Shown here: positions 6,411-30,092 of the stretch, one piece after another
Position numbering within the stretch: position 1 is the first letter of the stretch
Layout: each line of letters opens with the position of its first letter
Source of the DNA: Verrucomicrobiota bacterium
GTDB taxonomy: Bacteria > Verrucomicrobiota > Verrucomicrobiia > Limisphaerales > Palsa-1400
Reading direction: 5' to 3'
Assembly (NCBI GenBank): GCA_050011995.1
Contig: JBEKIA010000031.1
Location: 1-43,986, forward strand
DNA: 43,986 bases
Notes under the pieces: model-generated
Told to the model about the DNA's origin: nothing
The model's input: only the letters and a program-made list of their open reading frames with translations
Database searches by the model: none
Made by a program: the position numbers and the translations under genes

Positions 6411-6422
6411 TGGAAAACTTTT

Positions 6423-7675: not shown

Positions 7676-7678
7676 GGT

Positions 7679-9103: not shown

Positions 9104-9121
9104 ATTGCGTCCGGTGAGGGC

Positions 9122-9259
9122 GGGGCGCATTGCACTTTTTGGGTGGTTTTTCCTAATCTTAATCCTAATCTCAATCTTGTTCGGAGAAGCGGGGCAGGAT
9201 TAGGTTAAGATTAAGATTATGATTAAGATTAGGAGGGAATACTCAAAATGAAATGTGCC
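9122..9259 (+). repeat. Palindromic REP/MITE-like element with (AATCYT)n hexamer arms, copy A
   Basis: GGGGCGCATTGCACTTTTTGGG, (TAATCY)n, spacer, (GATTAR)n, degenerate right end. Near-identical to the reverse complement of 11752-11885. Confidence 0.85.
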
Positions 9260-9287
9260 GGTCCCCCAACTCCGGCCCCCTGCCCTC

Positions 9288-10918: not shown

Positions 10919-10947
10919 ATTTAAGCGCGGCGGCGGCCTTTGGTCAA
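10919..10947 (-). promoter_or_regulatory. Putative sigma70 promoter of the HU gene (TTGACC-N17-TTAAAT)
   Basis: Hexamer match with 17-bp spacing, ~35 bp upstream of the start. Confidence 0.5.
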
Positions 10948-10990
10948 GCGGAGAGACGCGATTCTGTGGGATTTTCTGTAGTGGAAACCC

Positions 10991-11284
10991 TTAGCTCTCA
11001 ATCACCCCAATTTCGACCGGTTCCACTTTGATGCCCAGTTCCTCCAGCCATCGGATGGCGGCTTTGACGGCCGGGGGCGGGCCGCTCAATTCCAGGCAAA
11101 CGATGCCGATCTCATCGGTGACGCTGGCCTGGCGGACATTGGTGATGACCGGGAATTTGCGGCCCAGTTCCCAAATGACCGGCGTGGTGATGAACTTGGG
11201 CGGATACATCAGCCAGAGGCGCGTTTGCGCCGGCGCTGTTGCGGGACCGCCTTTGGGCTTTGGTTTGATTTTTCTGGCTGGCAT
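10991..11284 (-). CDS. NIL-domain protein
   Basis: LxYP...PVIWELGRKF.V.TNVRQA.V....GIVCLEL pattern. Start is ATG 11284 or the coupled GTG 11338. Confidence 0.8.
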   Translation of the reverse strand: MPARKIKPKPKGGPATAPAQTRLWLMYPPKFITTPVIWELGRKFPVITNVRQASVTDEIGIVCLELSGPPPAVKAAIRWLEELGIKVEPVEIGVIES

Positions 11285-11885: not shown

Positions 11886-13523
11886 CTACCGCGTGTAAAG
11901 CGTCACATGCAGCGCGACGGGGTTTTTGCCGAATTTCGGCCCGCCGTTGTCCGTCTCATCGCCATTCCAGATGCGCAGGGGCTTGAACTTGCCGTTCTCG
12001 TAGCTGACTTCCTCGACCCGCAGATAATGCCATTCCTTTCCCGCTTTCGGGCCAATGGGGCGAAACGTCAGCCTGGCCGAGGAGCCGATGCACATAAGCT
12101 CATTCTCCCCAAGCTGCGCCACCAGCAACTGCCCAACCGCCGGCTGCGTGTTGGTCGTCGCGCCGCGGCCCGCCCTGCCCCCCGGTCCGAAGCTCACGTT
12201 TGCCTGCCAGGAGCCCAGATCGAGCGTCTGCGCGGCGTGGTCATCGTGCTCGATGGCGGCTTGGAGCTTGCCCTCAAAGGACCAGCGCGCCAACTCGCGC
12301 ATCATCGGGCCAAGCAGCGCGTAGTTGGCTGAAAAGGGCGCCAGCCGCTCGGCCGTTCGCTGGGCTGTCTCCCCGCTGCCGTTATCATCCAGCGGGCCGG
12401 TGCAAAAGCCTATGGAACCATGCGCCATGACCGCAAAAAGCATCCGCCCGAACTCCACGCCCTCGCCGATTTCCGGGATCATGAGGGGATTGTCCGGCCG
12501 GTTGTAGAGGTCGAGAACTTTGAGCTGGCGCGGACTGTCGGAGAGGTAAATGTCCGGCGCAACCAGGTCCAGCGCCGGGGCGGCCAATCTCCAGATCGGG
12601 ATCACGTTGTCCGTCGGGCCACCGCTTTCGTAGCCGCCGGCCTTGGGATTGCTCAACGGGTCGCGCAACGCCGCGTTGGCGTAGAGCGGCAGCGGATAGG
12701 CCGCCTTGCCCGCCGCCGCCACCCGCCCGACGTAATGCGCCACCCAATAAGCCTGGAAAAACTCGTCGGCATCGTCGCCAAACACCGCCGGCCAGTTCGC
12801 GCCCGCCGCGGCGGGGGCCTCCTTTTTCAACTCCTTGAGCAACTTCGGCTGGAGCATTTCCGCCGGCACCGGCGATTCAAAGATCTTCTGGGCCGCCGGA
12901 GAATAATCCCGCACCGAGCCCCACGCGCCGCTTTCATTTTCCACCTGAACCATCAACACGGTGTGCTGCGGGTCGGCTTGTTTGAGGTGGCCCATGAATG
13001 CCGCGAAAGCCGTCGCATCCAACTCCATCGCCGCCTGCGTGTGCGGCGAGGGCGAATCCACCGGACGGCCGTTGCGCCCGGTGATATTGGGATACTTGAC
13101 GCCCGCCTCCAGCTTCATCCACTCCGGCAGGTAGTGGGCGCTGCCATTTTTCCAGGTGGCGAACCACAACAAGACCAGGCGAACGTTGTGCCGGCGGGCT
13201 TCCTTGAGCAGCGTGTCCACGACGGAAAAATCGAATTTCCCCCGCGCCGGCTCGATTTGCTCCCAATAGACGGGCATCTCCACCGTGTTGGCGTGGATGG
13301 TCTCGACCGCCCTCCACACCTCCGGCAACTGGCTGGGCCAGGCGCTGGAGTTATTGATCTGCCCCGCGAACATGAAGAACGGCTGCCCGTCCACCAGGAG
13401 CGCGTGCCGCCCGTTTTGCTCCACGATCTTTGGCAGGTCCGCCGCCTGTCCGCGCACCGCGGCCAGCGACGCCAAAATCCCGGCGCAGGCGAGCCATTTT
13501 GTCCACTGCGATTGATGCAACAT
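11886..13523 (-). CDS. Secreted GH35-like beta-galactosidase (DUF5597-type C-terminus)
   Basis: Signal peptide; ANTVEMPVYWEQIEP, WFATWKNG, MVQVENE (acid/base), APDIY and LMIPE (nucleophile); GGAAGGAG RBS. Confidence 0.88.
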   Translation of the reverse strand: MLHQSQWTKWLACAGILASLAAVRGQAADLPKIVEQNGRHALLVDGQPFFMFAGQINNSSAWPSQLPEVWRAVETIHANTVEMPVYWEQIEPARGKFDFSVVDTLLKEARRHNVRLVLLWFATWKNGSAHYLPEWMKLEAGVKYPNITGRNGRPVDSPSPHTQAAMELDATAFAAFMGHLKQADPQHTVLMVQVENESGAWGSVRDYSPAAQKIFESPVPAEMLQPKLLKELKKEAPAAAGANWPAVFGDDADEFFQAYWVAHYVGRVAAAGKAAYPLPLYANAALRDPLSNPKAGGYESGGPTDNVIPIWRLAAPALDLVAPDIYLSDSPRQLKVLDLYNRPDNPLMIPEIGEGVEFGRMLFAVMAHGSIGFCTGPLDDNGSGETAQRTAERLAPFSANYALLGPMMRELARWSFEGKLQAAIEHDDHAAQTLDLGSWQANVSFGPGGRAGRGATTNTQPAVGQLLVAQLGENELMCIGSSARLTFRPIGPKAGKEWHYLRVEEVSYENGKFKPLRIWNGDETDNGGPKFGKNPVALHVTLYTR

Positions 13524-13878: not shown

Positions 13879-14418
13879 TCAGTCGCGGCGCGGCCCATTC
13901 CGGTCGCCGGCCAGGCGCCGCGCGGCGGCCAGAACCCGCAAGGCGATGGGCCGGAGAACCCGGCGCAAGGCCGGAGTCATGCGGGGGCTGACGGTGAACG
14001 GGTCCTGGACTTCAATCGCGAATATCTTGATCCGGCGCGGAACCGGCAAGCCCAACTGCCTGCCCAGCGCCACCATTTCTCCCACCCCTAGAAAATGCGG
14101 GGACACCATCGGCAGGACCTTGAGCTGGCTGCCGTCCAATTCATGGAGAAAGCCGGGGGGCGACTGTCCGGTCTGCACGGCGTCCACCAGAACCAAGTCC
14201 TCAAAGCCCGCGATGTAATCCAGAAGGGCCAGCCCCATTTCCGAAGTTTCCTGGACCTCAATCCCGTCGGAGCCGGAGAGGCGCCGCCTGATTTCCCGCG
14301 CAACGCGCAATCCCACCGCATCGTCGCTCAGAATGTCGTTGCCCAGGCCGAGCACCAGAACGGGTTTCTTGCGGGGCGGCGTTTTGCGCGGCGGCCTTTG
14401 CGGCGAAGTCGTTGCCAT
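13879..14418 (-). CDS. Second hydrogenase maturation protease (HycI/HyaD family)
   Basis: VLGLGNDILSDDAVG, LVDA and SPH motifs. Confidence 0.9.
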   Translation of the reverse strand: MATTSPQRPPRKTPPRKKPVLVLGLGNDILSDDAVGLRVAREIRRRLSGSDGIEVQETSEMGLALLDYIAGFEDLVLVDAVQTGQSPPGFLHELDGSQLKVLPMVSPHFLGVGEMVALGRQLGLPVPRRIKIFAIEVQDPFTVSPRMTPALRRVLRPIALRVLAAARRLAGDRNGPRRD

Positions 14419-14570
14419 GCTTCCATCTTGAGCCAAACATGTCCCATTTCAATGCCATTCCGGTTCCGTTGTTTTTTGAGAAAGTTTATGGCGGAATTGG
14501 CCAGGCGGAGACGCGGTGTAGATTAGACTATGGATTTGGAGCCTTGTGCATTAGTCTGGAGCAGGAAGGA

Positions 14571-18815: not shown

Positions 18816-19035
18816 GTTTTTTTGCGGGCAGAGCGGGCGCGGAACCTTATGCCTGTCTCAAAGACGCGCCGGGGCGCCTGCCCTACACGGCCAACCGGGA
18901 AGCCGGCCAACTGAGGCCGCTCAACTGGAAGAAAGCCCGTCAGCCCCAAGTCAAGCGGGCCGCTTGATTGTTCCATCGCCGTCCGGCCAATCCGCCCAGG
19001 TATCCCGCATCCCCGGCCCGCAAGAGGGGGGAGCC

Positions 19036-19096
19036 GTAATGCGTCAGTGAAGAGAGAGGAAAAGGTGGGGCGGGTCCCGATACATCGGCGCGCCAC
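19036..19096. repeat. Partial second copy of the same element family
   Basis: GTAATGCGTCAGTGA...AAAGGTGGGGCG matches the reverse complement of 18781-18815. Confidence 0.6.
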
Positions 19097-19143
19097 AATT
19101 CCAAAACATCTGTTGGAGGCGGTTCCCGCCGCCGCAAGAAGAA

Positions 19144-19188
19144 CAAAAAAGGCGCCCGAAGCCCTTTTCAAGGGGCTTCGGAACGCCT
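19144..19188 (-). terminator. Intrinsic terminator of VPDSG-CTERM gene 1
   Basis: Minus strand AGGCGTTCCGAAGCCC-loop-GGGCTTCGGGCGCC followed by TTTTTT. Confidence 0.8.
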
Positions 19189-19215
19189 GCGCAGAAATAC
19201 AGCAACCGAATGGAA

Positions 19216-19767
19216 CTAGGCCATCATTTTGCGTTTCATCAAGCCGAGGGCTGTCAGAACTCCACCGAGCAGCATGACCGTGGAACCGCCGTCAGGTGCA
19301 TGATCGGTATTAGCGTACACATCCAATTGCTCACTCGTTAATGTGCAGTCAAGGGTGACGGAAGCGCTGAATTGGCCATTCTGGCTTTGGATGTAACCCC
19401 ATTGTGTCGAGTTCAGGCTGAAATCCACGGTTTGTGAGTCAGAACTACCATTGCCGTAAAGCGTTGTTTGGCTATTATCAATTGTCAAGTAGACCGGGTC
19501 GTAGCGCAAGTCACTGATCGTCAAATAGAGGTCTCCGCCGTAAATTGAATATGCCGTGTCACTGAACACGGTGCCAACCGCAGGAGGAGCAGTAGAAATG
19601 GACTTCAACTGTGCCGTCGTGAAATTAAGAGTAATCGGATTGTCCCAATAATTAGCATTTACAGATAGGCTTTCCTGAAATGTTGGATCGTCCTGAGCGT
19701 AGGCTTGCAGGCCTGCTGCTAACAATGCTACCAATGCGCCGCCAAGTAATGTGCTGTTTTTTTTCAT
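19216..19767 (-). CDS. VPDSG-CTERM (PEP-CTERM-like) exosortase substrate 1
   Basis: Signal peptide MKKNST...AYA; S/T/N/D-rich body; C-terminal APDGGST + transmembrane helix + KRK. Confidence 0.9.
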   Translation of the reverse strand: MKKNSTLLGGALVALLAAGLQAYAQDDPTFQESLSVNANYWDNPITLNFTTAQLKSISTAPPAVGTVFSDTAYSIYGGDLYLTISDLRYDPVYLTIDNSQTTLYGNGSSDSQTVDFSLNSTQWGYIQSQNGQFSASVTLDCTLTSEQLDVYANTDHAPDGGSTVMLLGGVLTALGLMKRKMMA

Positions 19768-19825
19768 AATGATTGTGAGAATTTCAAATTCTCGAGTTCT
19801 TTTGGGTTGCTGTTTCAATTGTTCC

Positions 19826-20033
19826 GGCTCTTCGACGTTTTCAGTGGAATCCGCCCCGCTCGTAGCGCAGGTTTCCAAACCTGCCGTGACGCCGATTTCC
19901 AAATCGGCGAATCGGGGAATCTCGCTGTCGCCGCGGGCTTGGAAGCCCGCGACACGGCAGACTTGGAAGTCTGCGCTACAAGCCCGACACTCTGCGTGTC
20001 GAACCCGCAATCCACTGAACTCGTCAAGGAACC
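19826..20033. mobile_element. ~208-bp MITE/REP-like composite palindrome in the leader of VPDSG gene 1
   Basis: Outer imperfect 23-bp inverted repeats. Inner GTAG...CTAC unit (19862-19979) carries four hairpins with TTCCAA/TTGGAA centres. Confidence 0.75.
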
Positions 20034-20114
20034 ATTTTTCTTGTTTATTGCTTATTTGCTTATCTGCTTATTTGTTCGCAGCACGCGCTGGAGCAAACAT
20101 TCAGTGCTAGATGA

Positions 20115-20129
20115 GCTAGAACTGTGCCA
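20115..20129 (-). promoter_or_regulatory. Sigma54 promoter (TGGCACA-N4-TAGC) of VPDSG gene 1
   Basis: Correct GG-N10-GC spacing; preceded by AACT as in the second copy. Confidence 0.75.
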
Positions 20130-20227
20130 AGTTATGCTCCCTCTATTCATTCGTCTCGCAAGTGTCTGGGCGATAGAGACTTGCCATTCCGTGCAACTCC
20201 TTCTCAAATCCGGTCCGAGGAAGCAAC

Positions 20228-20335
20228 TGTAATCATTTCCAACGCGTGTTGGAGATTTTCGGCGAAAAAAGGATGGAACCTCCTCAATATCAACAAGATG
20301 TGAACGTCACGGCCCAAGTGTAATTGAACCCGACG
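20228..20335. promoter_or_regulatory. Two putative PrsR enhancer sites (20228-20244 and 20319-20335)
   Basis: TGTAATCATTTCCAACG and TGTAATTGAACCCGACG; same motif and spacing as upstream of VPDSG gene 2. Confidence 0.6.
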
Positions 20336-20411
20336 TTTTTCCAGGCATGGCAGGGTTCGGCCCGTCGCCGGCAGCTCACTGGCGCCCCCATGATGGTGAA
20401 TTTTACAGGAG

Positions 20412-20450
20412 CAAGATTAAGAGGGGAGCCCAAAAAAGTGGAATGCGCCC
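20412..20450. repeat. Half copy (C) of the hexamer-arm palindromic element
   Basis: AAGATTAAGAGGGGAGCCCAAAAAAGTGGAATGCGCCC, 16 bp after the prsR stop. Confidence 0.7.
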
Positions 20451-20466
20451 GCGGCTGTGGCTGGGA

Positions 20467-21819
20467 TCACTCCCTGGGGATGTTCAACTTGTCCATCAGA
20501 TCGTAAAGCTTGGGCCGGCCGATGCCCAGCGCGACGGCGGCCGGAGCGATTTTTCCCCCATGCTTGCGCAAGGCGCTTTGAATCATCTCTCTTTCCAGAC
20601 GTTCCCGGGCTGCTCTGAGCGTGGTGCCGCTGAAGCCGGGGGTGGCGGGCGGCAATTCCAGGTCGCGCATGGTCAGGCGTTTTCCTTCGGCCATAATGAC
20701 CGCCCGGCGGATGCAATTCTCCAACTGGCGGACGTTGCCGGGCCAGGGGTTGTGGCTCAAGGCGCGCATGGCTTCCGGGTCGAAGGCCAAACCGGCTTTG
20801 CCGGCCTGCTCGGAAAAGCGGTGGAGAAAGAACTGCGCCAGCAGCCGGATGTCGTCCTCCCGTTCCCGCAGGGGGGGCATGGCAATTTTGACGACGGCGA
20901 GGCGATAAAACAAATCCTCGCGGAAAGTACCGTCCAACAGGCCTTTTTTGAGATCGGCATTGGTGGCGGTGATGATGCGGGCATCAATGGGGATGGGCTG
21001 GCGTCCGCCGACGCGCTCAATGAACTGCTCCTGGAGGAAGCGGAGGAGTTTGACCTGGATGGGCAGGGGGATTTCGCCGATCTCATCCAGAAAGAGCGTG
21101 CCGCCGATGGCGGTTTCAAAGCGTCCTTTCCGCTGGGCGTGGGCGCCGGTGAAGGAGCCTTTTTCGTGCCCGAACAATTCGCTTTCCAAAAGCGTTTCCG
21201 GGATGGCGCTGCAGTTGATGGCGATAAAAGGCCCCTTTTTGCGGGCGCTGCACTGGTGGATGGCTTGCGCCGCCATTTCCTTGCCGGTGCCGCTCTCGCC
21301 CAATAAAAGCACGGGGGCGTCCGTGGTGGCCACTTTGCGGATGGTCTCAAACAGGCTGCGCATGCCGGCGCTGGTGCCCAGCATCCCCTCGAAGACGTCC
21401 GGGCGCGCCTCGCGCTGCATCTCCCGGATCTCCCTTTCCAGTTGGGCCACATGGAAAACGCGTTTGAGAAGAACCTTCAATTCTTCCATTTCCACCGGCT
21501 TGGCCATGAAATCGTAGGCCCCTCCTCCGATGGCGCGCAGACCAATCCCCTTTTCGCCCTGCCCGGTGATGACGATGATTTTGGCCAGGCTGTCCAGGGC
21601 GGTCAACTCCGCCAGCGCGGCCAGCCCCTCCTCGGGGCCGGCGGGATGGGGCGGCAGGCCCAAATCCAGCAGGACGACCAGCGGGCGGGCGGCTGCAAAA
21701 GCTTCCACCGCGCCCGGCCGGTCCCCCGCCAGGACGATGTCGTAGTCGCCGGCCAGCGCCCATTTCATCTGGGTGCGGATTTCTTCGTCGTCGTCCACGA
21801 TCAGTAATTTTGGATTCAT
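20467..21819 (-). CDS. prsR: PEP-CTERM-system sigma54-dependent response regulator
   Basis: Receiver with LDLGLPP, GESGTGKE, GSFTGA, LFLDEIG, FREDLFYRL, WPGNVRQL and a Fis-type HTH; adjacent to prsK. Confidence 0.9.
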   Translation of the reverse strand: MNPKLLIVDDDEEIRTQMKWALAGDYDIVLAGDRPGAVEAFAAARPLVVLLDLGLPPHPAGPEEGLAALAELTALDSLAKIIVITGQGEKGIGLRAIGGGAYDFMAKPVEMEELKVLLKRVFHVAQLEREIREMQREARPDVFEGMLGTSAGMRSLFETIRKVATTDAPVLLLGESGTGKEMAAQAIHQCSARKKGPFIAINCSAIPETLLESELFGHEKGSFTGAHAQRKGRFETAIGGTLFLDEIGEIPLPIQVKLLRFLQEQFIERVGGRQPIPIDARIITATNADLKKGLLDGTFREDLFYRLAVVKIAMPPLREREDDIRLLAQFFLHRFSEQAGKAGLAFDPEAMRALSHNPWPGNVRQLENCIRRAVIMAEGKRLTMRDLELPPATPGFSGTTLRAARERLEREMIQSALRKHGGKIAPAAVALGIGRPKLYDLMDKLNIPRE

Positions 21820-23963
21820 CTGCTGTTTTTGCTGGCCGGCAAAAGCACCCGGAAAGAGGTGCCTTTGTTCAGTTGACTCTCCACCTCAATCCTGCCGCCG
21901 TGCGCCTCGACAATCATCTTACTCTGAAACATGCCAATGCCAAAGCCATCTTTCTTGGTGGTTTGAAAGGGCCGGAACAAGGCGCCCCGGAGGAACTCCG
22001 GGGCCATGCCGCAGCCGTTGTCCGCCACCGTCAGCACCACCCAGTTTTGGGCCTGGCTGGTCTGGACGCGGATTTGGCCGTTGGGTCCGACGGCTTGGGC
22101 GGCGTTGAGGAGGAGGTTGGTCACCACTTTGTGAATCTGTTCAGAGTCAAATGGAAATTGGGGGATGGGGCCGAGATGGGACGCCAGGGCCAAGGCGGGG
22201 GAGCCGTTCCAACTGGCCAGGATTTTGGAAACCAAATCGTTCAGATCGGAAACCTCCGGGTGAATCTGCAGGTCGTGGCGCAGAACACTCAGCCGCCCGA
22301 TCAAATGGTTGATGTGCCGGCCGGATTTGGCGATGCCCCGCAGGGCATCCTCCCGGAAGGCCGGATTATCAAAGTGGACGGGCAGGTTTTGCAGCATCAA
22401 GTTGAGCGTGGAGGCGGTGTTCTTCAAGTCATGCACGAAAAAGGCGGACATGGTCTGAAAGGCCTCCAATTCCTTGGCCTGCAAGAGCTTCTGCGAGAGC
22501 TGGGAATTGAGCAGGCTGGCCGCAATCTGGTCCCCCACACATTTGAGAAGGTCATAATCCTGGAGCGAAAAGAGCAGACCGGCCACCCGGTCGCCCAAAA
22601 TCATCAGACCCAGGAGTTCGCCCCCCGCGACCATGGGCACGCAAACCCGGCCGCCGCCCTCCTCAAACTCCGAGGGATGGCAACGCCGCAAGGTCACGGC
22701 CCAATTCTCACTGGAGTACTCCACATCCACCGGTTCCAGGCGATGGCGCATGGCCTGGATCAACTCGGCGGCTTCTTCGCGGCTGGGCCGCAGTTTTTCC
22801 GCCATCGCCGCGGAGAGCGAGGTGGAAGCGGCCAATTCCAGATTTTCCCCCTTGTCGTCCATCAACCAGATGCTGACGGAAAGGGCCTGAAAAATGTCCG
22901 CCGCCAGCTTGACGGAGGCCTGGCACAGTTCTTTTTGCGTCACCCGGCTGGCCATGCCTTCGGTGAAACGCCTCCAGACGGTGCGGTAATCATAAAGCGG
23001 CCGTTGCAGATAACGGCTGACCAGCCGCCGGGTGTGCAATTGCACCCGGTCGGAAAGCAGCAGGACGGTCACCACCACCAAGACCACCAGGATGAAAAAG
23101 GCCCTGAGTTGGAAGGAACCGGTCAACCTCAGCCACTGCACCACCTTGGCCAGCACTCCGACGATGAGCAAATAAAGGCCGGCAACCAGGAGGGTGACGG
23201 ATTTGTGGAGGTCTTTGTGGGAGGGATAAACGGCCACCTCCGCCGACCCGCGGAACAGCGAACGCAACATCAAAAGGCAGCCCAGCAGCAACGCCGCCGC
23301 ATTGACTGTCGCGGCAGAACTGGTCGGCCCCGTCACGGGAATCATTCGGTCGCGAATCTGAAGCTGGGTCGGCAGGACCAGCGCCTGACTGGCGGTATAA
23401 GCCCTGACCGCAAACAACAAACCCAGGCCAAGCACCATGAATTTGATCCGCCACCGCATCGTCCCCACCGACGCCCAAAATGTCCTTTCCAGTTGCATCA
23501 GAATGACGACCGCGCCCAACAAGGAGATCATATACGCGACCCAGCCGGTGGGGGTCAAAGCGAACAGCCATTGCTGCGTTGCGGAAAGAAAGACCTGCCC
23601 GCCCACAAGCTGGCCGCGGTGCCAGACCGCCAAGGCAATGGGGACGATGAAAGCCGCCCCCAAGGCCTCCCGCCATTTGCCCAAGAACTCCCGATAATTT
23701 CCCCGCGCATAACTGAGACTGAATAGAAGCCAGACGCCCGGCAGCAGCGACATGGACAGCAAAGCCCAATCCTCCCAACGACCCGCCTCCTCCGGGGAAA
23801 CGGCCCCCGTCATCAGCCCGGAAAAAACGCTTTCACAGGACAGCAGGGCCATGCCAGCCACAAAGAACCAGACCGCCACGGAGCGCCGCTCGCGGAAAGC
23901 GGCAATCAGCGCGACCGCGCCCCCAAGAAAGGCGGCGGAGTAGTCGAGTATGACGGCATTCAT
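21816..23963 (-). CDS. prsK: PEP-CTERM-system histidine kinase
   Basis: Multi-TM N-terminus, YDYR linker, GAF-like region, AF..MSAFFVHDLKN H-box, DNGCGM and GFGIGMFQ motifs. Confidence 0.9.
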   Translation of the reverse strand: MNAVILDYSAAFLGGAVALIAAFRERRSVAVWFFVAGMALLSCESVFSGLMTGAVSPEEAGRWEDWALLSMSLLPGVWLLFSLSYARGNYREFLGKWREALGAAFIVPIALAVWHRGQLVGGQVFLSATQQWLFALTPTGWVAYMISLLGAVVILMQLERTFWASVGTMRWRIKFMVLGLGLLFAVRAYTASQALVLPTQLQIRDRMIPVTGPTSSAATVNAAALLLGCLLMLRSLFRGSAEVAVYPSHKDLHKSVTLLVAGLYLLIVGVLAKVVQWLRLTGSFQLRAFFILVVLVVVTVLLLSDRVQLHTRRLVSRYLQRPLYDYRTVWRRFTEGMASRVTQKELCQASVKLAADIFQALSVSIWLMDDKGENLELAASTSLSAAMAEKLRPSREEAAELIQAMRHRLEPVDVEYSSENWAVTLRRCHPSEFEEGGGRVCVPMVAGGELLGLMILGDRVAGLLFSLQDYDLLKCVGDQIAASLLNSQLSQKLLQAKELEAFQTMSAFFVHDLKNTASTLNLMLQNLPVHFDNPAFREDALRGIAKSGRHINHLIGRLSVLRHDLQIHPEVSDLNDLVSKILASWNGSPALALASHLGPIPQFPFDSEQIHKVVTNLLLNAAQAVGPNGQIRVQTSQAQNWVVLTVADNGCGMAPEFLRGALFRPFQTTKKDGFGIGMFQSKMIVEAHGGRIEVESQLNKGTSFRVLLPASKNSR

Positions 23964-24018
23964 CGGTTCACTGAAACAGGCCGGCGCATCGGCGCTGAAC
24001 CAGTTTGTTGTTCAGGCG

Positions 24019-24047
24019 ATAGTACGCCGGGAATGCGGGGCCGGCAA
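24019..24047 (-). promoter_or_regulatory. Putative sigma70 promoter of prsKR (TTGCCG-N17-TACTAT)
   Basis: Good -10 with 17-bp spacing, located after the upstream terminator. Confidence 0.55.
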
Positions 24048-24106
24048 TGGAAAAGCGGCGCATCCAACATGTGGATTGCCGCCGCAGGAGAAAAGCGAAG
24101 GGACAG

Positions 24107-24142
24107 AAAAAATAAAAAAGGCAGGGCAATGAAGCCCTGCCT
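24107..24142 (-). terminator. Intrinsic terminator of VPDSG-CTERM gene 2
   Basis: Minus strand AGGCAGGGC-TTCATT-GCCCTGCCT followed by TTTTTATTTTTT. Confidence 0.85.
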
Positions 24143-24171
24143 CCGTGAAAACCATTGATGCTTATGTTCTT

Positions 24172-24714
24172 TTAGCTCACCAGCTTGCGACGGAACATCT
24201 GCAGGCCGAACAACGCGCCGCCCAAGAGGGCAACCGTCAGGCCGCCGTCTGGAATATTGGGAACAACGACACCGAAAGCCTCGCCGCCACTTCCATTGCC
24301 CCAAAGACCACCGTCCTGCGCGGAAATGTCGCCTAACGTCGGAGCTATTGGAGTGTAGAAATCCAACGTCGCGCCGGTGACGCCAGGAGAGAACAGCCAA
24401 TTCACAGCGCCTGAAGAGAGGTTAGAACCGTCATTCGAACCAGTGATGCCAACCGGGTTGGCAGGAGTTGTGTTGAAGTACACACTGAGCGACGACAGGG
24501 CTGAAGGAGCGCCACTGAAAACATACTGATATTGGTAGTCACCCGAATAGGTCCCGGTTGACTCAAGTGTGGCGGTGGAAGCCACCGTGAAGTTTTGCGC
24601 GCCATTAACCAAGCTGGCGTTGCCGTTCAGATTCGCCAGAGCGACCTGGCTGAGGCTCGAAGTTAGGACGACTGCCGCCGTTGCGGCAAGGATTGTTTTG
24701 AAGGACTTTTTCAT
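24172..24714 (-). CDS. VPDSG-CTERM (PEP-CTERM-like) exosortase substrate 2
   Basis: Signal peptide MKKSFK...ALA; S/T/G/N-rich body; C-terminal IPDGGLT + transmembrane helix + RRK. Confidence 0.9.
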   Translation of the reverse strand: MKKSFKTILAATAAVVLTSSLSQVALANLNGNASLVNGAQNFTVASTATLESTGTYSGDYQYQYVFSGAPSALSSLSVYFNTTPANPVGITGSNDGSNLSSGAVNWLFSPGVTGATLDFYTPIAPTLGDISAQDGGLWGNGSGGEAFGVVVPNIPDGGLTVALLGGALFGLQMFRRKLVS

Positions 24715-24785
24715 AATTTTATCGGTTTTCACTGAATTTTTCACTTTATTTGTTAATTGTTCTCACTGAACAGATGTAAACTAAC

Positions 24786-24800
24786 GCAACCTTCGTGCCA
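24786..24800 (-). promoter_or_regulatory. Sigma54 promoter (TGGCACG-N4-TTGC) of VPDSG gene 2
   Basis: Perfect -24/-12 consensus. Confidence 0.88.
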
Positions 24801-24840
24801 AGTTTCACAACATCCATCCATTCAACAGCCATTTCATACG

Positions 24841-24853
24841 CAAGTAATTGATA
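24841..24853 (-). promoter_or_regulatory. IHF-binding site
   Basis: TATCAATTACTTG fits WATCAANNNNTTR, next to an AT-rich tract, between enhancer and sigma54 site. Confidence 0.65.
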
Positions 24854-24921
24854 ATCATATTATTATGAAATAATGAATTTTGCATTTCAATTTGGCTGGC
24901 GGACGGCAAGAGGCCGATAAA

Positions 24922-25030
24922 CGTAATGAATTCTGACAAAAGAACCCGGTTTTGGACCCACAGTCATCTGTAAGTGGTTTATATTGAAATGGATATGAGG
25001 ATTCACGGAAATCTGTAATCAATTCCGACG
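24922..25030. promoter_or_regulatory. Two putative PrsR enhancer sites (24922-24938 and 25014-25030)
   Basis: CGTAATGAATTCTGACA and TGTAATCAATTCCGACG. Confidence 0.6.
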
Positions 25031-25061
25031 TTTTCAGGGCTGTTGGCACTCTGGAACAGGG

Positions 25062-25745
25062 TCAAAACCAGGTGAATTTCTCCGGCACGACGATGGTGTC
25101 GTAGGGCTTGAGAGTGAACGGTTCTTCCTGCCATGCTCCATCAATGATCTTCTGGAGGTCCAGTTGTTTATACGTGTTGTGCCCAGTGGCGTCTGTCCGT
25201 ATCACTTCGACCTTTTTCAAATTCGACTTGGCGGAATCAATGCCCGTCTCGATCACCGCCTGAAAGACCGTCAAGGGCCGGTCTGAGATGAGCTTGCCGG
25301 GCCGGAGGACGGCTCCGGTGACATACACGATGAAGACGGAGCTTTGAACGGTGACGCTGACTTGCTTGACTTTGAGCTGGCCGCCGACCTTGTTTAGGAT
25401 GGCGTCCGCCGCTCCGTCCGGGGTCAGGCCGGAGACTTGGACGTCGCCCGCGTTGAGAATGGTGATTTTGCCGTCGGCCCGAATGGTGAGGGAGGCATCC
25501 ATTTCCGGCGCGCCGGGGAACTTGACCTGCAAGACATCTCCTTCGTGCAACAGCAAGGTGGCCGCCTCGGTGTCGCCGGTCGAAGGCGGCACCTGCGGAA
25601 GCACCGCGGTTTCACATCCAGAGGCGATGAGGCAGAGGGCCAGCCCCAGGGCGGCGGCGGCGGCCAGGCGGGCCGGACGAACGGACAAGAACCCGGCGCG
25701 GAGGCCGTTCTTCGATGAAAGTTTTGCAGTGAAACAGTGTAACAT
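25062..25745 (-). CDS. Polysaccharide export (Wza/OPX) lipoprotein
   Basis: Lipobox IASGC, poly_export motif GDVL...IRADGKI, SLBB VYVTGAVLRPG, LKPYDTIVVP; AGGAG RBS before 25745. Confidence 0.88.
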   Translation of the reverse strand: MLHCFTAKLSSKNGLRAGFLSVRPARLAAAAALGLALCLIASGCETAVLPQVPPSTGDTEAATLLLHEGDVLQVKFPGAPEMDASLTIRADGKITILNAGDVQVSGLTPDGAADAILNKVGGQLKVKQVSVTVQSSVFIVYVTGAVLRPGKLISDRPLTVFQAVIETGIDSAKSNLKKVEVIRTDATGHNTYKQLDLQKIIDGAWQEEPFTLKPYDTIVVPEKFTWF

Positions 25746-25831: not shown

Positions 25832-28800
25832 TTACTTGAGCAGCCCGAGAACGCGGTTCGCCTCGGCGGCCATGTCCGCCGAGGCAAGCTTCAACGCCAG
25901 GGCCTTCTGCAGCGCCGTTTTCGCCTGGGCGTTCTGCTTGAGCGCGTAGTAGTCCATGCCCAGATACCAAAACAGCTCGGCGTCATTCTGTTTTTTCTGG
26001 GCGCTCTGATTCAACGAGACGACGGATTTTGTGTAATTCTTGCGCCGGTACTCCAACAGGCCCGCGGCCTTGGCCAGGTCCGCATCGTCTGGAAACGCCT
26101 GGGCGGCTTTGGCTTCATAGTCATAAGCCTTGGCGTCGTTGCTGCCATCGCGCGCGTAGAGGAGGAACAACTGCCGGACAGCCGGGACAAAGAGAGGGTA
26201 GGCGGCCAAGACATTCTCGTAGGACGGTTCGGCCTCCTTGGCCTTGCCTTGTTGCTCCTGAATCAGGCCCCAGGCCATCAAGGCCGGGGCGTAGTTGGTG
26301 TCCGCCTGCAAGACCTGCTGGACACGGGCGGCGGCCTGGGGCGGGGCGGCGTTGCTGTAGATCGCCGTCATCTCGAGGAATTGTTTGGCGTCGTTGAGCT
26401 TGTCAAAGGGGGCGCCGGTTTGCACCGCGCTTCGCATGGAGGCCTGCGCCTGGGCCACATTGCCCACGCTGAAGTAAGCCCAGGCCAGATCGTGCAGCAG
26501 ATCCGGCTGCGCCGGGAGCGCGCGGGCGGCGGCTTGCAGCAGGGTCAGGGCGTAAGGATAGTCACGGGCCTGAAAAGTTATCCGGCCCAAGGCCTCGATG
26601 ATGTTGGGATCGTCCGGGAGGAGGTTGTGGGCGTTTCTGGCCAGGGCCAAACCTTTTTGGGGCTGATTGAGTTTGGTGGAATCCAGGACGGCCAGCCGGA
26701 TGATGGCGCGCGCATTCTCGGGGCTTTGTTGAATCACATTTTCATAGGTCGCGGCGGCTTTTTCAAAATCGCCATCCCGCTCTTGAAAGGCGGCCATGCG
26801 GATCAGGGCTATGGGGTCGGCGGGATCGGCCTGGATTTGTTTTTCCAAGGCGGCGCGGTCGGCGGCGGGGGCTGTCTTGGGGTCGAGATCGAGAATTTTC
26901 AGGCGGCGCAGGGCATCGTTGGTGGCATCAAAATCCATTTTGGAAAGGGCAAATTTCAAATTCAGCCGGGCGGATTCCTCCTCTCCAAGCATGTAATGGG
27001 CCATGCCGAGATGGTAGTGAACCTCCCCGTTGTTGGGTTGCTTATCCGCGCTGTCCTGCAACAAGGCCACCGCGTGCGCGTAGTCATGCTTCCTGTGGAG
27101 AATCCATCCCAGAGTGTCGGTCACATACGGGTCGTAGGGATAAAGCTCCCGGGCTTTCTCGGCCAGTTTGAAGGCATTGTCGAGGTCGTTGAAGCGCTCG
27201 GAATAGAGATAGGCCAGAGTGTTCAGGGCGGTGGCGGAACGCGGGTCCAGGGCGAGAACTTTCTCGTAGTCGGCGCGCGCGGCGTCATATTCTTTCAACT
27301 GATTGTGGATCGTGCCGATTTCCATCAAAGCGGAGGGGCTGTTGGTCAGACTGATGAGGGCGTTGAGCTTGTCCAGGGCTTGCTTCTGCTGATTCTGGGC
27401 CACGTAAAGCCTGGCCAGCAGGAGGTAGGGCTGCGGAAGTTTGGGGTCCATCTCAATGACCTTTTCCAAGTCGGCTTGAGCTTGGGCATTGTCCTTTTGC
27501 CGGATGTGGATTTGGGCCTGCAAGAGCCAGGGCAGCGGGGCTTTCGGGTCCTTGTCCATTTGCTTTTTCACGCGTTCCAAAGCAGGCGCAAAGCGCGATT
27601 GGATGAGGTCCAAATCCACCAGTCCCTCCAAGGCGGGAATGTAATCGGGATTGATGACAAGCGATTTCTCGAAGGCGGCGCCCGCCTCCGCCAGTTTGTT
27701 CTGATTGAGCCAGGCCCGTCCCTCGAGGAAGTGAATTTGCGCCTCTTTGGGATACGATTCTTCCATGCCCCGATAGATGGCAATGGCTCGATCGGGGGAG
27801 TTTTGGATCAGGTAGGCCTGGGCGAGGATCAAGCTGGCTGGAATAGTGACAGCCGGGGGGAGATTGGTCTGTTTGAGCAAGGGCGTGAGCAGCACCAGGG
27901 CCGGAGCGGTGTTGCCCTGCCGCATGTTCAGATCGGAGAGCATGAGCTTGGCCGGAGCATAATTGGTATCCAGTTCCAGGGAGCGGTTGAGGCTGGAGAG
28001 GGCTTTGGGCCTGTCCCCGTTCAGGATGTAGGCCATGGCCAGTTGATAGGGAATTTGGGGGCGGGGATCTTTTGGATTCACGGCGGCCAGATGTTCGAAG
28101 TCCGCCACCGCTTGTTTTGCGTCTTTCTTTGCCAGACTCACATCCCCCTTGCACAGGAGGGCATCGGAATTGTTTGGCTCACGAGCCAGCACCTGGGAAA
28201 TATAAGAATTGCACTCATCGAACTTGCCTTCGCCCAAGGAGAACCTCATCAAGAGAAGCAAGGGCGGCAGGTAGTCGGGCGCCTGGCGGCTCAGTTCCCG
28301 CATGCTCTCCACAGCCTGGTTGGTGGCTCCGGTTTGGGCTTGGAATTCCGCATACATGGTACGCACGGAGGAGCGAAGCGGAGCCAGTTCAACCGCGGTT
28401 TTGTAGGCTTGGTCCGCCCCTTTGAGGTCTTTGCGGAAAGCGGACAATTTGGCCAATCCAACATAAACCAAACTCGACTTGGGATCCAGGCTCTTGGCCT
28501 TGTTGAACTCGGTTTCGGCGGCGGCCATGTTGGTTTCGCGGGCGTCAATAATGCCGAAAGCCAAATGATAGCTGCCGCGGTCTTGGTCTTGCTTCTCAAG
28601 TTGTTCGATATAGCGGCGGGTTTGCTCGGCATCCTCCGCGCCTCGAATCGCATCGCAGAGCGACACCAGGGCTCTTTCATCCCCCGGCTTGAGTTTGAGG
28701 GCGCGCCGGGCGGCCTCTTTGGCTTCCGCAGGACGGTTGCCCCCCGCCCAGATGTTGGCCAGCTCAATCTGGATCTGGGCATTGTCCGGCTCTTTTTTGG

Positions 28801-29080
28801 CGGCTTCCGCCAAATACGCCAACGCCGGCATGGTCCGGCCTTCGGCGGCATAGACCAGCCCGAGTTGGCCCAAAGCTCTTGGATTGGGCGGGGACATCAT
28901 CCGGCAGGCGTTGCTGTAGGCCGTCTCCGCCTTGGCATATTCCCCGGCTTGATAATAGCGGTCGGCGCGGTCCATGGCGCGGTTGGTCCGGGCCGCCTTG
29001 GTGCAACCGCCTCCCGCGGCGGCAGCCAGGGCCAGCGCCAGGAGGACGAGGAAAGATCGCGATCGCATTAAGGTTGTCAT
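25832..29080 (-). CDS. Large TPR lipoprotein (PrsT-like)
   Basis: Lipobox AGGGC; TPR repeats throughout; LNTLAY...DTLGWIL motif; exosortase/EPS context. Confidence 0.85.
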   Translation of the reverse strand: MTTLMRSRSFLVLLALALAAAAGGGCTKAARTNRAMDRADRYYQAGEYAKAETAYSNACRMMSPPNPRALGQLGLVYAAEGRTMPALAYLAEAAKKEPDNAQIQIELANIWAGGNRPAEAKEAARRALKLKPGDERALVSLCDAIRGAEDAEQTRRYIEQLEKQDQDRGSYHLAFGIIDARETNMAAAETEFNKAKSLDPKSSLVYVGLAKLSAFRKDLKGADQAYKTAVELAPLRSSVRTMYAEFQAQTGATNQAVESMRELSRQAPDYLPPLLLLMRFSLGEGKFDECNSYISQVLAREPNNSDALLCKGDVSLAKKDAKQAVADFEHLAAVNPKDPRPQIPYQLAMAYILNGDRPKALSSLNRSLELDTNYAPAKLMLSDLNMRQGNTAPALVLLTPLLKQTNLPPAVTIPASLILAQAYLIQNSPDRAIAIYRGMEESYPKEAQIHFLEGRAWLNQNKLAEAGAAFEKSLVINPDYIPALEGLVDLDLIQSRFAPALERVKKQMDKDPKAPLPWLLQAQIHIRQKDNAQAQADLEKVIEMDPKLPQPYLLLARLYVAQNQQKQALDKLNALISLTNSPSALMEIGTIHNQLKEYDAARADYEKVLALDPRSATALNTLAYLYSERFNDLDNAFKLAEKARELYPYDPYVTDTLGWILHRKHDYAHAVALLQDSADKQPNNGEVHYHLGMAHYMLGEEESARLNLKFALSKMDFDATNDALRRLKILDLDPKTAPAADRAALEKQIQADPADPIALIRMAAFQERDGDFEKAAATYENVIQQSPENARAIIRLAVLDSTKLNQPQKGLALARNAHNLLPDDPNIIEALGRITFQARDYPYALTLLQAAARALPAQPDLLHDLAWAYFSVGNVAQAQASMRSAVQTGAPFDKLNDAKQFLEMTAIYSNAAPPQAAARVQQVLQADTNYAPALMAWGLIQEQQGKAKEAEPSYENVLAAYPLFVPAVRQLFLLYARDGSNDAKAYDYEAKAAQAFPDDADLAKAAGLLEYRRKNYTKSVVSLNQSAQKKQNDAELFWYLGMDYYALKQNAQAKTALQKALALKLASADMAAEANRVLGLLK

Positions 29081-29081: not shown

Positions 29082-30092
29082 TCAGATTTTTTGTTGGGGG
29101 TTGTCTTCGAATTCGACAGTGTTTTGCATTTTGGATTCAGTTTTTCGCAGCCAGATCAGAAACAAAAAGAAAGGGATGAGCGAGAGGGCGAAAAAGACCG
29201 GCCCGCCCTGGCGGTGAATCCAGGAGTGAATCATGCCGTGGCTGATGTGAACGCAAAGTTCACCGACGACAAAAATACGGAAGCCGTTCCTCACGATGGC
29301 CAGAGGGATGACGAACAAGGCCAAAAAGACCCGCCGCCACGTCGAGCGCAAAAAGAGGTTCCCCGCCAGCAGGCTGGTAATGAGCAGGACCTGGCTGGAA
29401 TGGATGCCGCTGCACTCCGGCGCCACCCTCAGACGGAAATCCGTCGGCAGATTCAGTGTCAGCCCCTCTTGTCTGCAGTGGGTGAAGGCCAGACTGAAAA
29501 AGCCGTGGGCGGCGGCGGCGGAAGTGTGTTGGAAGAAGGTTTCCAGCCCGTCATTGACGATCTTCGGATAAGGAACCATGAACAGCAGCATGGCGAGGGG
29601 GAAGGCGATCGCCGACATCATGGCGGCGCCCAGAGAGGCAAAACCCGCGGCCAGCAGCAGCAGCAAGAACCCCAGCATCATCACGGCCAGATAATCTTGT
29701 TCCGCCGGAATCCATCCCTTTTGCAGCGCATACCAATAAAGCGCCAGGACCGCCCCTCCCGCCGCCGCCGCCGCCGCCGCCGCTCCCCAGCCCGGGCGGA
29801 CCTCCGCGCCCAGCCCGGCGCGCCGGATCCAGATGAGATACCCGGTTATCAGGGGCATCAGCGGCATGTAGGAATAAAACTGGCTGTCCATGGAGAACCC
29901 CACCCAATCGCAAAGAGGGACGATGAAACAAAGCGCCAGAACGGCCGCCAGCGCCGCCAGCGCCAGGAAAGGCCTCCACCCCGGTGTCCGCTTTCCCCGC
30001 GGCGCCCCGGGCGCGGGCGCGGAAGGCGCTTTTGGAGAGTCACCCGCCGCATTAGGATTGCCGGGATTCCGCATGCCATCGCTCCGTTTCAA
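29082..30092 (-). CDS. Exosortase, probably VPDSG-CTERM-specific (XrtC-like)
   Basis: About 8 TM helices; catalytic Cys in VAPECSG, Arg in NGFRI, His in WIH; no fused EpsI domain. Confidence 0.9.
   Translation of the reverse strand: MKRSDGMRNPGNPNAAGDSPKAPSAPAPGAPRGKRTPGWRPFLALAALAAVLALCFIVPLCDWVGFSMDSQFYSYMPLMPLITGYLIWIRRAGLGAEVRPGWGAAAAAAAAGGAVLALYWYALQKGWIPAEQDYLAVMMLGFLLLLLAAGFASLGAAMMSAIAFPLAMLLFMVPYPKIVNDGLETFFQHTSAAAAHGFFSLAFTHCRQEGLTLNLPTDFRLRVAPECSGIHSSQVLLITSLLAGNLFLRSTWRRVFLALFVIPLAIVRNGFRIFVVGELCVHISHGMIHSWIHRQGGPVFFALSLIPFFLFLIWLRKTESKMQNTVEFEDNPQQKI

Follow-up and report, generated by a model that had tools for sequence, protein, structure and literature searches.

The stretch of DNA analysed here (hereafter referred to as the window; 43,986 nucleotides of contig JBEKIA010000031.1) contains two genes encoding small secreted proteins with a VPDSG-CTERM sorting signal, each preceded by two 17-bp sites and a sigma-54-type promoter. 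The question raised by this locus is that of the activator served by these sites. The first-pass annotation had taken them for the operator of a verrucomicrobial PrsR regulon controlling VPDSG-type proteins. The association of the sites with CTERM genes, with prsKR loci and with PrsR itself supports this proposal, but the motif is not new, having been predicted in 2006. On the basis of the sequence comparisons described below, the 17-bp sites are very probably a verrucomicrobial form of the PEP-CTERM box, the upstream activating sequence (UAS) at which PrsR, a response regulator of the NtrC family, is predicted to act.

Organization of the locus

Genes 1 and 2 flank the prsKR sensor-regulator pair. 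Each forms a single-gene unit in which a box pair, a spacer and a -24/-12 promoter are followed by the gene itself and then by an intrinsic terminator. Genes and associated elements are as follows:

19155..19182, minus strand, intrinsic terminator after gene 1
19216..19767, minus strand, gene 1, 183-aa secreted protein with a VPDSG-CTERM signal (PF18205, 30.5 bits)
19862..19979, no strand assigned, palindromic four-hairpin element
20467..21819, minus strand, prsR, sigma-54 activator with REC, AAA+ and Fis HTH domains (TIGR02915, 582.8 bits; cutoff 502.6)
21816..23963, minus strand, prsK, histidine kinase (TIGR02916, 353 bits; cutoff 300)
24117..24144, minus strand, intrinsic terminator after gene 2 (11-bp stem, T run)
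24172..24714, minus strand, gene 2, 180-aa secreted protein with a VPDSG-CTERM signal (PF18205, 26.9 bits)
25062..25700, minus strand, polysaccharide export protein gene (TIGR03027, 76 bits, under the cutoff of 180)
25835..29080, minus strand, prsT, TPR protein (TIGR02917, 367.8 bits; cutoff 312.2)
29085..30092, minus strand, exosortase (TIGR04151, XrtC, VPDSG-specific, 242.8 bits; cutoff 300)

Both window proteins scored above the cutoff (25 bits) of PF18205, the model for the C-terminal motif, transmembrane helix and basic cluster of VPDSG-CTERM proteins. With TIGR03778 (cutoff 22 bits), genes 1 and 2 scored 25.1 and 24.9 in the genome search, and 21.4 and 21.3 in an hmmscan of the proteins. 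The full-length scores of PrsR, PrsK and PrsT exceeded the curated equivalog cutoffs. The exosortase scored 94.6 bits with the XrtA model (cutoff 208), and it is referred to here as XrtC-like rather than as a confirmed member because TIGR04151, its best exosortase model, nevertheless gave a score below the cutoff. The polysaccharide export gene lies immediately upstream of the gene 2 enhancer. The four-hairpin element lies within the leader of gene 1 (about 340 nt; z-score of -8.55) and has a second copy on another contig (C35); no credible Rfam match was obtained at permissive thresholds for positions 19000-25300.

Promoters and paired boxes in the window

The regulatory elements upstream of the two genes are listed below, with the scores obtained with a box matrix built from eight sites read by coordinate:

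20115..20129, minus strand, sigma-54 -24/-12 promoter of gene 1 (TGGCAC-N5-TAGC)
20228..20244, minus strand, predicted proximal PEP-CTERM box of gene 1 (26.5 bits)
20319..20335, minus strand, predicted distal PEP-CTERM box of gene 1 (19.8 bits)
24786..24800, minus strand, sigma-54 -24/-12 promoter of gene 2 (TGGCAC-N5-TTGC)
24841..24853, minus strand, IHF-consensus site between the gene 2 box and promoter (exact fit to WATCAANNNNTTR)
24922..24938, minus strand, predicted proximal PEP-CTERM box of gene 2 (25.5 bits)
24969..24974, minus strand, central half-box of gene 2 (CTTACA in gene direction)
25014..25030, minus strand, predicted distal PEP-CTERM box of gene 2 (CGTCGG-N5-ATTACA in gene direction; 29 bits)

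A pattern search of the window with TGGCAC-N5-TWGC gave two matches, both on the minus strand, and a search with YGTAAT-N5-CYRACR, the pattern of the first-pass annotation, gave exactly four, at 20228, 20319, 24922 and 25014, all on the plus strand. Direct reading and these searches bore out most of what had been noted previously: the four 17-bp sites, the spacing of 91 and 92 bp between the members of each pair, the two promoters with AACT before each, the distances of 99 and 122 bp from the start of the proximal site to the T of TGGCAC (spacers of 98 nt for gene 1 and 121 nt for gene 2), and an extension shared by the two distal sites, both of which run on as CCGACGTTTT(T)(C)CAGG. Shuffled windows contained a mean of 0.02 matches to YGTAAT-N5-CYRACR, and none of 100 contained four, but this test is circular and, taken alone, overstates the case, because the pattern was written from those same four sites.

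In gene direction, the 17-bp box reads YGTCGGAAWTNNTTACA (consensus of 55 distinct sites from relatives); its TTACA is near-invariant in these relatives, and the preceding base is A, C or T. NtrC-family activators bind upstream pseudo-palindromes, but the box is barely palindromic, with symmetry limited to TGT-N11-ACA, an unusual property for a site recognized by a dimer. A search of the genome for rpoN yielded only a terminal fragment of 24 residues at the edge of a contig.

Recurrence in the genome and in relatives

In the 4.24-Mb assembly, the box matrix gave 11 matches of at least 20 bits, the next best scoring 18.5, and identified 10 box pairs at eight loci, versus none with the reversed matrix; six of these 10 pairs were spaced by 91 or 92 bp. 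The first-pass pattern matched 12 times genome-wide, eight of these matches lying outside the window. Four of the eight (C59, C94, C132 and C144) are intergenic look-alikes, each accompanied by a second site and by a sigma-54-like promoter, and the other four (C14, C110, C149 and C209) are apparently coding or due to chance.

As an independent set of DNA, we used 80 prsR loci from other Verrucomicrobiota (869 kb), all 80 being verrucomicrobial or other non-proteobacterial records. The own-genome matrix detected 56 box sites of at least 16 bits and 18 box pairs in these loci, versus none of either in the control. The loci contained 42 box-linked sigma-54 promoters, with the box in promoter orientation at 40. 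Further loci from related genomes, from which three rows duplicating earlier loci were dropped, contributed 11 promoters, six of which had pairs spaced by 91-93 bp, and all seven complete ORFs had a CTERM match.

The first-pass reading implied enrichment of the motif upstream of other sigma-54 CTERM genes, and such enrichment was observed. Paired boxes with a sigma-54-like promoter lie upstream of five of the eight detectable CTERM-signal genes in the genome (the three genes without a box being on C95, C378 and C160), and, in the relatives, 35 of the 39 first ORFs that are complete and lie downstream of a box-linked sigma-54 promoter end in a VPDGG-type sorting signal.

Geometry of the enhancers

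We found 49 sigma-54 promoters, those of both window genes among them, with no more than two mismatches, at 97-155 bp from a box, and in 47 of them the promoter-proximal box was oriented in the direction of the promoter. The AACT before both window promoters was rejected as a general feature, being present in only 5 of 48 distinct box-linked promoters. In the genome under study, the distance from the box centre to the GG of the -24 element was 100, 108, 129, 129, 131, 131 and 132 bp. The 49 box-promoter distances bunched near 99, 110, 120 and 130 bp (97-100 bp, four promoters; 107-112 bp, 21; 119-120 bp, seven; 126-132 bp, 13), with a maximum Rayleigh R of 0.59 at a period of 10.5 bp.

The first-pass annotation had also proposed an IHF site at each gene. 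The gene 2 site stands as an exact fit, whereas the degenerate equivalent at 20159-20171 was rejected, as it matches 5 of 9 specified positions, which is not above chance; no IHF site with up to two mismatches was found anywhere between the proximal box and the promoter of gene 1. An IHF site is, therefore, credible at gene 2 alone of the two window genes. Exact IHF sites were present in 7 of the 49 box-promoter intervals (shuffle mean of 0.51), and sites with no more than one mismatch numbered 25, versus 8.7 in shuffles. This element thus appears, from these matches, to apply to a minority of related promoters. The genome encodes two proteins of the HU/IHF family, both scoring below the IHF equivalog cutoffs (best score of 74 versus 115 bits). 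An IHF-like protein is encoded within the window, at 10587-10883.

The central half-box of gene 2 lies about 45 bp from the centre of the distal box and 47 bp from that of the proximal box. A half-box, TTAC[AG], was found at an equal offset in 6 of 12 pairs with 91/92-bp spacing, and an A-run immediately 5' of the distal box (in gene direction) was a majority feature across 12 aligned pairs. It is conceivable, albeit doubtful, that the two boxes and the midway half-box form a three-point scaffold pre-arranging three PrsR dimers as an active hexamer, in fixed helical phase to the promoter. The centres being about 45-47 bp apart, or about 4 1/3 turns, each site would be rotated by about 120-135 degrees relative to the last. 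If it exists, such a scaffold would be an enhancer architecture undescribed for other bacterial enhancer-binding proteins, and one elaborated in this lineage from the proteobacterial form with its single box.

Coverage in RNA libraries

Gene 1 and its whole leader are bridged by RNA-library contigs identical to the window and extending to 20078 (X1) and 20090 (X4), and gene 2 is covered to 24736 in three runs from three studies. Contigs from X1 (record 8) and X2 (record 16) extend from gene 2 past its promoter and both boxes, beyond 25100; some molecules must therefore either start elsewhere than at the sigma-54 promoter or be DNA. Such contigs give neither starts, strand nor level. No RNA run covered 20105-20305 or 23924-24124, and these gaps are uninformative concerning start sites or read-through into prsK.

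Probable assignment of the boxes to PrsR

In the mechanism favoured here, the membrane histidine kinase PrsK would sense an envelope or matrix signal and phosphorylate PrsR, the dimers of which, bound to the boxes, would form an active AAA+ ring. DNA looping, aided by an IHF-like bend at gene 2 and in some relatives, would bring this ring to the sigma-54 holoenzyme on one face of the helix, and ATP hydrolysis would lead to promoter opening. The small secreted products would be processed by the neighbouring XrtC-like exosortase and would join the exopolysaccharide layer produced by the same locus.

The principal alternative is that the boxes are a real enhancer for another sigma-54 activator, such as an NtrC-type paralogue, or for a co-factor, with PrsR acting elsewhere. 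The genome contains 44 matches to NtrC-type activators, so the assignment to PrsR leans on adjacency and on co-occurrence among non-independent genomes. Adjacency is evident both here, where boxes flank prsKR, and at the prsKR loci of 38 of the 80 relatives. For co-occurrence, we scored PrsR in a phylogenetic profile (PrsK and PrsT were checked in the window alone): of the 13 related genomes in which PrsR exceeded the cutoff, 12 contained the strict box pattern, versus 1 of the 8 genomes without such a PrsR, although this contrast is overstated because the genomes are kin to one another. These genomes yielded 43 matches to the strict pattern and none to the backwards pattern. The two exceptions, one genome with PrsR and no strict match (G009) and one with a single match and no PrsR (G015), would be compatible with the binding of another protein to the boxes, as would the result for G016, a PrsR-less genome with 14 matches versus 5 in the control when one mismatch was allowed. 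This relaxed pattern (6 versus 5 in G006 and 14 versus 2 in G009) was rejected, due to the poor separation of the PrsR-less genome from controls. The box is also found with prsK, prsR and prsT on a gammaproteobacterial plasmid and, according to the text of Haft et al. (2006), in 13 Proteobacteria, and the PrsR HTH is conserved across phyla. We therefore consider the involvement of another activator improbable.

A second alternative is that the modules are not selected sites but relics, left when a promoter cassette or a mobile element was duplicated along with paralogous genes. The targets are indeed small secreted proteins that resemble paralogues; near-identical duplicates occur among the relatives' loci (L037, modules at 356/447 and 1638/1729), and the C94 module is followed by an IS1595 fragment. 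Nevertheless, the six own-genome modules have no common sequence between or around the boxes, only the boxes themselves, their spacing and the promoter having been kept. The box persists where PrsR is just 60-70% identical, the spacing from the promoter varies in steps of a helical turn, and distal boxes that are inverted (C36 and C59, and L108 and L101 in relatives) retain an unchanged spacing. Duplication is thus a very unlikely origin for these modules. Finally, a chance likeness of the four window sites, spotted by eye and written up as a pattern only after the sites had been seen, can be dismissed with near certainty, given that such sites recur independently on further contigs and in further genomes, with no match in the controls, and that they are linked to sigma-54 promoters and CTERM genes.

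Significance and comparison with known systems

The assignment of the boxes to PrsR would provide a concrete candidate operator and a predicted PrsK/PrsR regulon for the Verrucomicrobiota, in which PrsK and PrsR were previously known from automatic annotation only. It would also connect the PrsK/R/T regulators with another class of sorting system, the XrtC-like, VPDSG-type one, and this connection suggests that matrix-associated surface proteins of different phyla share a single regulatory logic. The natural promoter variants, with their fixed 91/92-bp pairs and 10.5-bp steps, also constitute a data set on enhancer geometry.

Classical enhancer systems include NtrC at glnAp2, the NifA UAS (TGT-N10-ACA), NorR with its three required sites, and IHF-assisted looping. 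As in these systems, the verrucomicrobial boxes lie 100-130 bp from a sigma-54 promoter, with several sites that could nucleate an oligomer, an outer TGT...ACA symmetry, a predicted IHF-type site between enhancer and promoter in some cases and a probable dependence on the face of the helix. However, classical sites are adjacent, two to three turns apart, whereas the boxes described here are 91/92 bp apart; they show strong asymmetry and, in the proximal position, are specific for one orientation.

The closest system is that of Haft et al. (2006; PMC1569441), the text of which, together with one Vibrio plasmid, was our source for the proteobacterial box consensus. In the parts of that report drawn on here, a 17-nt "motif 1" ending in TTTACA is the predicted PrsR site in Proteobacteria; it lies upstream of a sigma-54 "motif 2", with a mean spacer of 62.8 nt (SD 10.6, range 32-92), and co-occurs with PrsK/PrsR/PrsT in the 13 species. 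The same parts describe the motif as shared by Proteobacteria only and V. spinosum as lacking PrsK/R/T. Both boxes, as far as those parts describe the proteobacterial form, are 17 nt long, with a TTACA-type 3' end facing the -24/-12 promoter, and both precede single-gene units with long intergenic regions encoding secreted proteins with an exosortase signal; in both systems, the site is sometimes repeated and prsK, prsR and prsT lie beside an exopolysaccharide locus. The systems differ in phylum and in the presence here of a VPDSG-type signal and an XrtC-like exosortase, rather than XrtA. Unlike the form described in 2006, the verrucomicrobial boxes mostly occur as 91/92-bp pairs, often with a central half-box. 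The spacers, of 98 and 121 nt for the two window genes and roughly 87-122 nt (mostly about 97-122 nt) for those of relatives, extend beyond the maximum of 92 nt given in that text, and the base 5' of TTACA may be A or C as well as T, whereas that of motif 1 is T.

A plasmid of Vibrio alfacsensis with annotated prsK/R/T has directly similar boxes (TGTCG-N7-TTACA), 72 and 92 nt ahead of sigma-54-like promoters, one of which precedes a PEP-CTERM gene. These boxes were located by means of a generic pattern combined with the sigma-54-like promoters paired with them, the GC-tuned matrix being non-discriminating on this AT-rich plasmid (two matches of at least 15, versus one in the control). The plasmid PrsR is 47% identical to that of the window, with a conserved C-terminal HTH.

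Our literature search identified no PrsR-DNA binding experiment in any organism, no paper on a verrucomicrobial PrsR operator and none mentioning VPDSG-CTERM, with Haft et al. (2006) the only result combining PEP-CTERM, Verrucomicrobiota and sigma-54. The transcription start and RpoN dependence have been measured for pepA of Aquincola tertiaricarbonis RN12 (PMC9850573), and the upstream element is referred to, in the parts of that report drawn on here, as a "previously predicted enhancer sequence". Like the window genes, pepA, as described there, has -24/-12 elements of the GG/GC type, an enhancer predicted upstream and a stem-loop terminator; this PEP-CTERM gene adjoins prsT, with prsK and prsR in the genome. 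It differs in its host, a betaproteobacterium, and in the XrtA type of its sorting system, the window system being known from sequence. Overall, the verrucomicrobial box system is not a new kind of system, and the box is best described as a predicted, differently spaced example of a known switch; what is new is the phylum, the XrtC-like/VPDSG system, the paired boxes with a fixed spacing and the clustered box-promoter distances.

The prs locus and its box-promoter modules

All relevant features of the prs locus lie on the minus strand of the window and are listed here in order of transcription:

29085-30092, minus strand: XrtC-like exosortase (best model TIGR04151, 242.8 bits, short of the cutoff of 300)
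25835-29080, minus strand: prsT (TIGR02917, 367.8 bits; cutoff 312.2)
25062-25700, minus strand: polysaccharide export gene, followed by the gene 2 control region
24172-24714, minus strand: gene 2, VPDSG-CTERM (PF18205, 26.9 bits, cutoff 25; TIGR03778, 24.9 bits in the genome search, cutoff 22)
24144-24117, minus strand: terminator 3' of gene 2, between gene 2 and prsK
21816-23963, minus strand: prsK (TIGR02916, 353 bits; cutoff 300)
20467-21819, minus strand: prsR (TIGR02915, 582.8 bits; cutoff 502.6), followed by the gene 1 control region
19216-19767, minus strand: gene 1, VPDSG-CTERM (PF18205, 30.5 bits, cutoff 25; TIGR03778, 25.1 bits in the genome search, cutoff 22)
19182-19155, minus strand: terminator 3' of gene 1, last in the order

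The window also carries a Hox-type bidirectional NiFe hydrogenase cluster (4758-9791 and 13882-14436), with a NuoF-like subunit, HoxU (above cutoff), the small and the large subunit and a pair of maturation proteases. In the 4.2-Mb, 78% complete assembly, sigma-54 activators of the NtrC type gave about 44 matches, and rpoN is represented only by a contig-edge fragment (C48:3-74).

The pattern YGTAAT-N5-CYRACR has four matches in the window, the four 17-bp sites (hereafter referred to as boxes) reported by the first-pass annotation, paired at 91 and 92 bp. The two TGGCAC-N5-TWGC promoters were also recovered, at 20129..20115 and 24800..24786, 99 and 122 bp from the start of the proximal box. 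Shuffle tests within the window are circular, because the patterns were derived from these same sites, and the weight of the argument therefore rests on DNA outside the window. The whole assembly (4.24 Mb, 404 contigs, 78% complete) contains 12 pattern matches; of the eight on other contigs, four are intergenic and resemble the window sites. With a matrix made from eight sites picked by coordinate, the search gave 11 hits of at least 20 bits, the next score being only 18.5, and identified 10 box pairs, versus none with the column-reversed matrix. Measured between centres, the boxes are 91 or 92 bp apart in six cases (the two window genes and contigs C132, C94, C144 and C36), 80 bp apart at C59, where the distal box is inverted, and 112 bp apart at C117. 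No two loci share related DNA between the boxes, which speaks against a copied cassette.

Conservation in relatives

The matrix was applied to 80 prsR loci from other Verrucomicrobiota MAGs (869 kb; PrsR identity 59-91%), yielding 56 sites of at least 16 bits, versus none with the reversed matrix, and at least one box in 38 of the 80 loci. A sigma-54 site with no more than two mismatches and a box 40-180 bp upstream was found in 42 cases, in the same orientation as the box in 40. Behind 39 of these promoters the first ORF is complete, and 35 of these ORFs carry a C-terminal sorting signal of the VP(D/E)GG type; the remaining four include two export-protein genes and one probably truncated ORF. 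Synteny is conserved, with a module (boxes plus sigma-54 promoter) and CTERM gene ahead of prsK and often a second one behind prsR. In two loci (L056, ~10932-11084; L057, ~8161-8316), a sigma-54-like site beyond the box faces away from that box, in the direction of an export-protein gene resembling that at 25062-25700 of the window; one enhancer may be used divergently here, or the arrangement may be due to chance.

Strict-pattern hits in related genomes gave a further 31 stretches of surrounding sequence, in which 14 box-linked promoters were found; three of these (two in L099, one in L104) were dropped as duplicates of L001 and L007. Among the remaining 11, all seven complete ORFs gave a CTERM hit, and six had box pairs at 91-93 bp. 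PrsR scored above the cutoff in 13 of the 21 genomes of the relatives set. The strict pattern YGTCRGAWWTNNTTACR was present in 12 of these 13 (missing in G009) and in one of the eight genomes without PrsR above the cutoff (G015, one hit), with 43 hits in total, versus none for the backwards pattern; as the genomes are kin, this profile is descriptive only.

Enhancer geometry and a predicted IHF-like bend

The 49 distances from box centre to promoter GG fall into groups of 97-100 (4), 107-112 (21), 114-116 (2), 119-120 (7), 126-132 (13) and 152-155 bp (2), with a peak Rayleigh R of 0.59 at a period of 10.5 bp. The two-turn difference between the window promoters, already remarked upon in the first-pass annotation, thus belongs to a general rule of quantised distances. 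Between the boxes, a central TTAC(A/G) lies within the central 34 bp in eight of 12 pairs of 91/92 bp (shuffles 1.89 +/- 1.23; 0/1000 reaching eight), at +49 from the distal centre in six, including the unrelated C132 and C144; it also occurs in two of six further non-duplicate pairs.

An IHF site had been proposed for both genes. An exact consensus is indeed present at gene 2 (24853..24841), where an IHF-like bend is plausible from the sequence, but no site with two or fewer mismatches was found at gene 1, leaving a bend there unsupported. Across the 49 box-promoter intervals, seven contain exact sites (0.51 +/- 0.66 in 200 shuffles, maximum 3), and 25 sites have at most one mismatch (shuffles 8.7 +/- 2.9). 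The genome encodes two HU/IHF-family proteins, both under the IHF equivalog cutoffs; one is in the window, 9 kb from the prs locus:

10587-10883, minus strand: HU/IHF-family gene (nearest IHF beta, 74 bits; cutoff 115)

The anatomy of the module, its helical phasing and its association with both PrsR and sorting-signal genes are directly supported by these data. By analogy with the family, PrsK would phosphorylate PrsR, which would oligomerise on the boxes and be brought by looping to the sigma-54 holoenzyme, the promoter then being opened in an ATP-driven step. Transcription running past the gene 2 terminator into prsKR might provide positive feedback.

Genes downstream from the modules

Curated models identified eight CTERM genes in the assembly. 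Five VPDSG-type genes stand behind modules; the other three (C95, C378 and C160) have none. The C59 module precedes a secreted DUF4082 protein cut off at the contig end. On C132, a 92-bp pair with a central half-box (12827-12935) and a sigma-54 site with three mismatches lies upstream of a secreted carbohydrate-esterase-like protein (L089 290-1177, minus strand; PaeX-like, 143 bits, below cutoff) lacking a sorting signal. At C94 2251-2424, three boxes, 91 and 66 bp apart, accompany a good sigma-54 promoter, with no CTERM gene downstream, only an IS1595-type transposase fragment; the gene once controlled from here may have been displaced. The orthologous module of G002 (L096) likewise has no ORF in reach.

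Two genomes have AMP-forming ligase genes behind a single box; the accompanying sigma-54-like site is in phase, at 131 bp in the own genome, G000 (C139; box centre 1305, gene 1545-3356, L090 346-2157), and at 99 bp in G001 (C36, L105). The G000 ligase has the exosortase-A-associated acyl-CoA ligase as its second-best family (188 bits; cutoff 592), and the regulon may include this gene as a non-CTERM member.

RNA-library contigs and the gene 1 leader

Metatranscriptome contigs identical to the window cover gene 1 and its entire leader (19100-20078 in library X1, 19192-20090 in X4), or extend to 19979 (X2) and 19975 (X5). Contigs of X1, X4 and X5 (three studies) cover gene 2 from 24217/24220 up to 24736, and other X1 and X2 contigs continue over its promoter and boxes past 25100. 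Such contigs give neither starts nor strand, and show only that the long gene 1 leader is present in the libraries and that some molecules span the gene 2 enhancer. In contigs of two runs from two studies, 24254 is joined directly to 24707, so that 452 bases of gene 2 are missing; a variant or an artefact of the graph may account for this junction.

The gene 1 leader is about 340 nt long (19768-20103), the GG-to-ATG distance being 25-109 nt in most relatives, and its fold (-144.8 kcal/mol, z = -8.55) is far more stable than those of shuffles. It contains one element:

19862-19979: palindromic four-hairpin element, 118 bp, with GC stems, TTCCAA/TTGGAA loops and inverted GTAGCGC at both ends

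One further copy exists in the assembly (C35, ~2715-2826), which contains only eight such hairpins, as two arrays and one single hairpin. The element is absent from the 80 prsR loci of relatives, has no match in Rfam and resembles a small palindromic repeat that has inserted into the leader.

Relationship to the proteobacterial PEP-CTERM box

The boxes had been taken to define the operator of a verrucomicrobial PrsR regulon. In Haft et al. 2006, a 17-nt motif 1 with the 3' end TTTACA is described ahead of 99 of 167 proteobacterial PEP-CTERM genes, sometimes repeated and followed, after a spacer of mean 62.8 nt (range 32-92), by a sigma-54 motif; its phylogenetic profile pointed to PrsK, PrsR and PrsT, and the authors state that it is confined to Proteobacteria and that V. 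spinosum is without PrsK/PrsR/PrsT. In relatives, 55 distinct sites yield the consensus YGTCGGAAWTNNTTACA, then N-TTT. TGTCG-N7-TTACA boxes also occur on a Vibrio alfacsensis plasmid that has annotated prsK/R/T, one 72 nt upstream of a sigma-54-like promoter and PEP-CTERM gene and another 92 nt upstream of a second such promoter; the plasmid's PrsR is 47% identical to that of the window, with a conserved C-terminal HTH. Given the match to the 2006 motif, the Vibrio boxes and the likeness of the PrsR proteins, the 17-bp site is, on sequence grounds, the PEP-CTERM box, already known, and not a new operator. Our search of the non-subscription literature found neither a paper on a verrucomicrobial PrsR operator nor a PrsR-DNA binding experiment. 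The form described here nevertheless differs from the proteobacterial one in its phylum and its XrtC-like/VPDSG system, in the pairing of boxes at a fixed 91/92 bp, often with a central TTAC(A/G) half-box at one fixed offset, and in its longer promoter spacers (98 and 121 nt) and quantised box-promoter distances.
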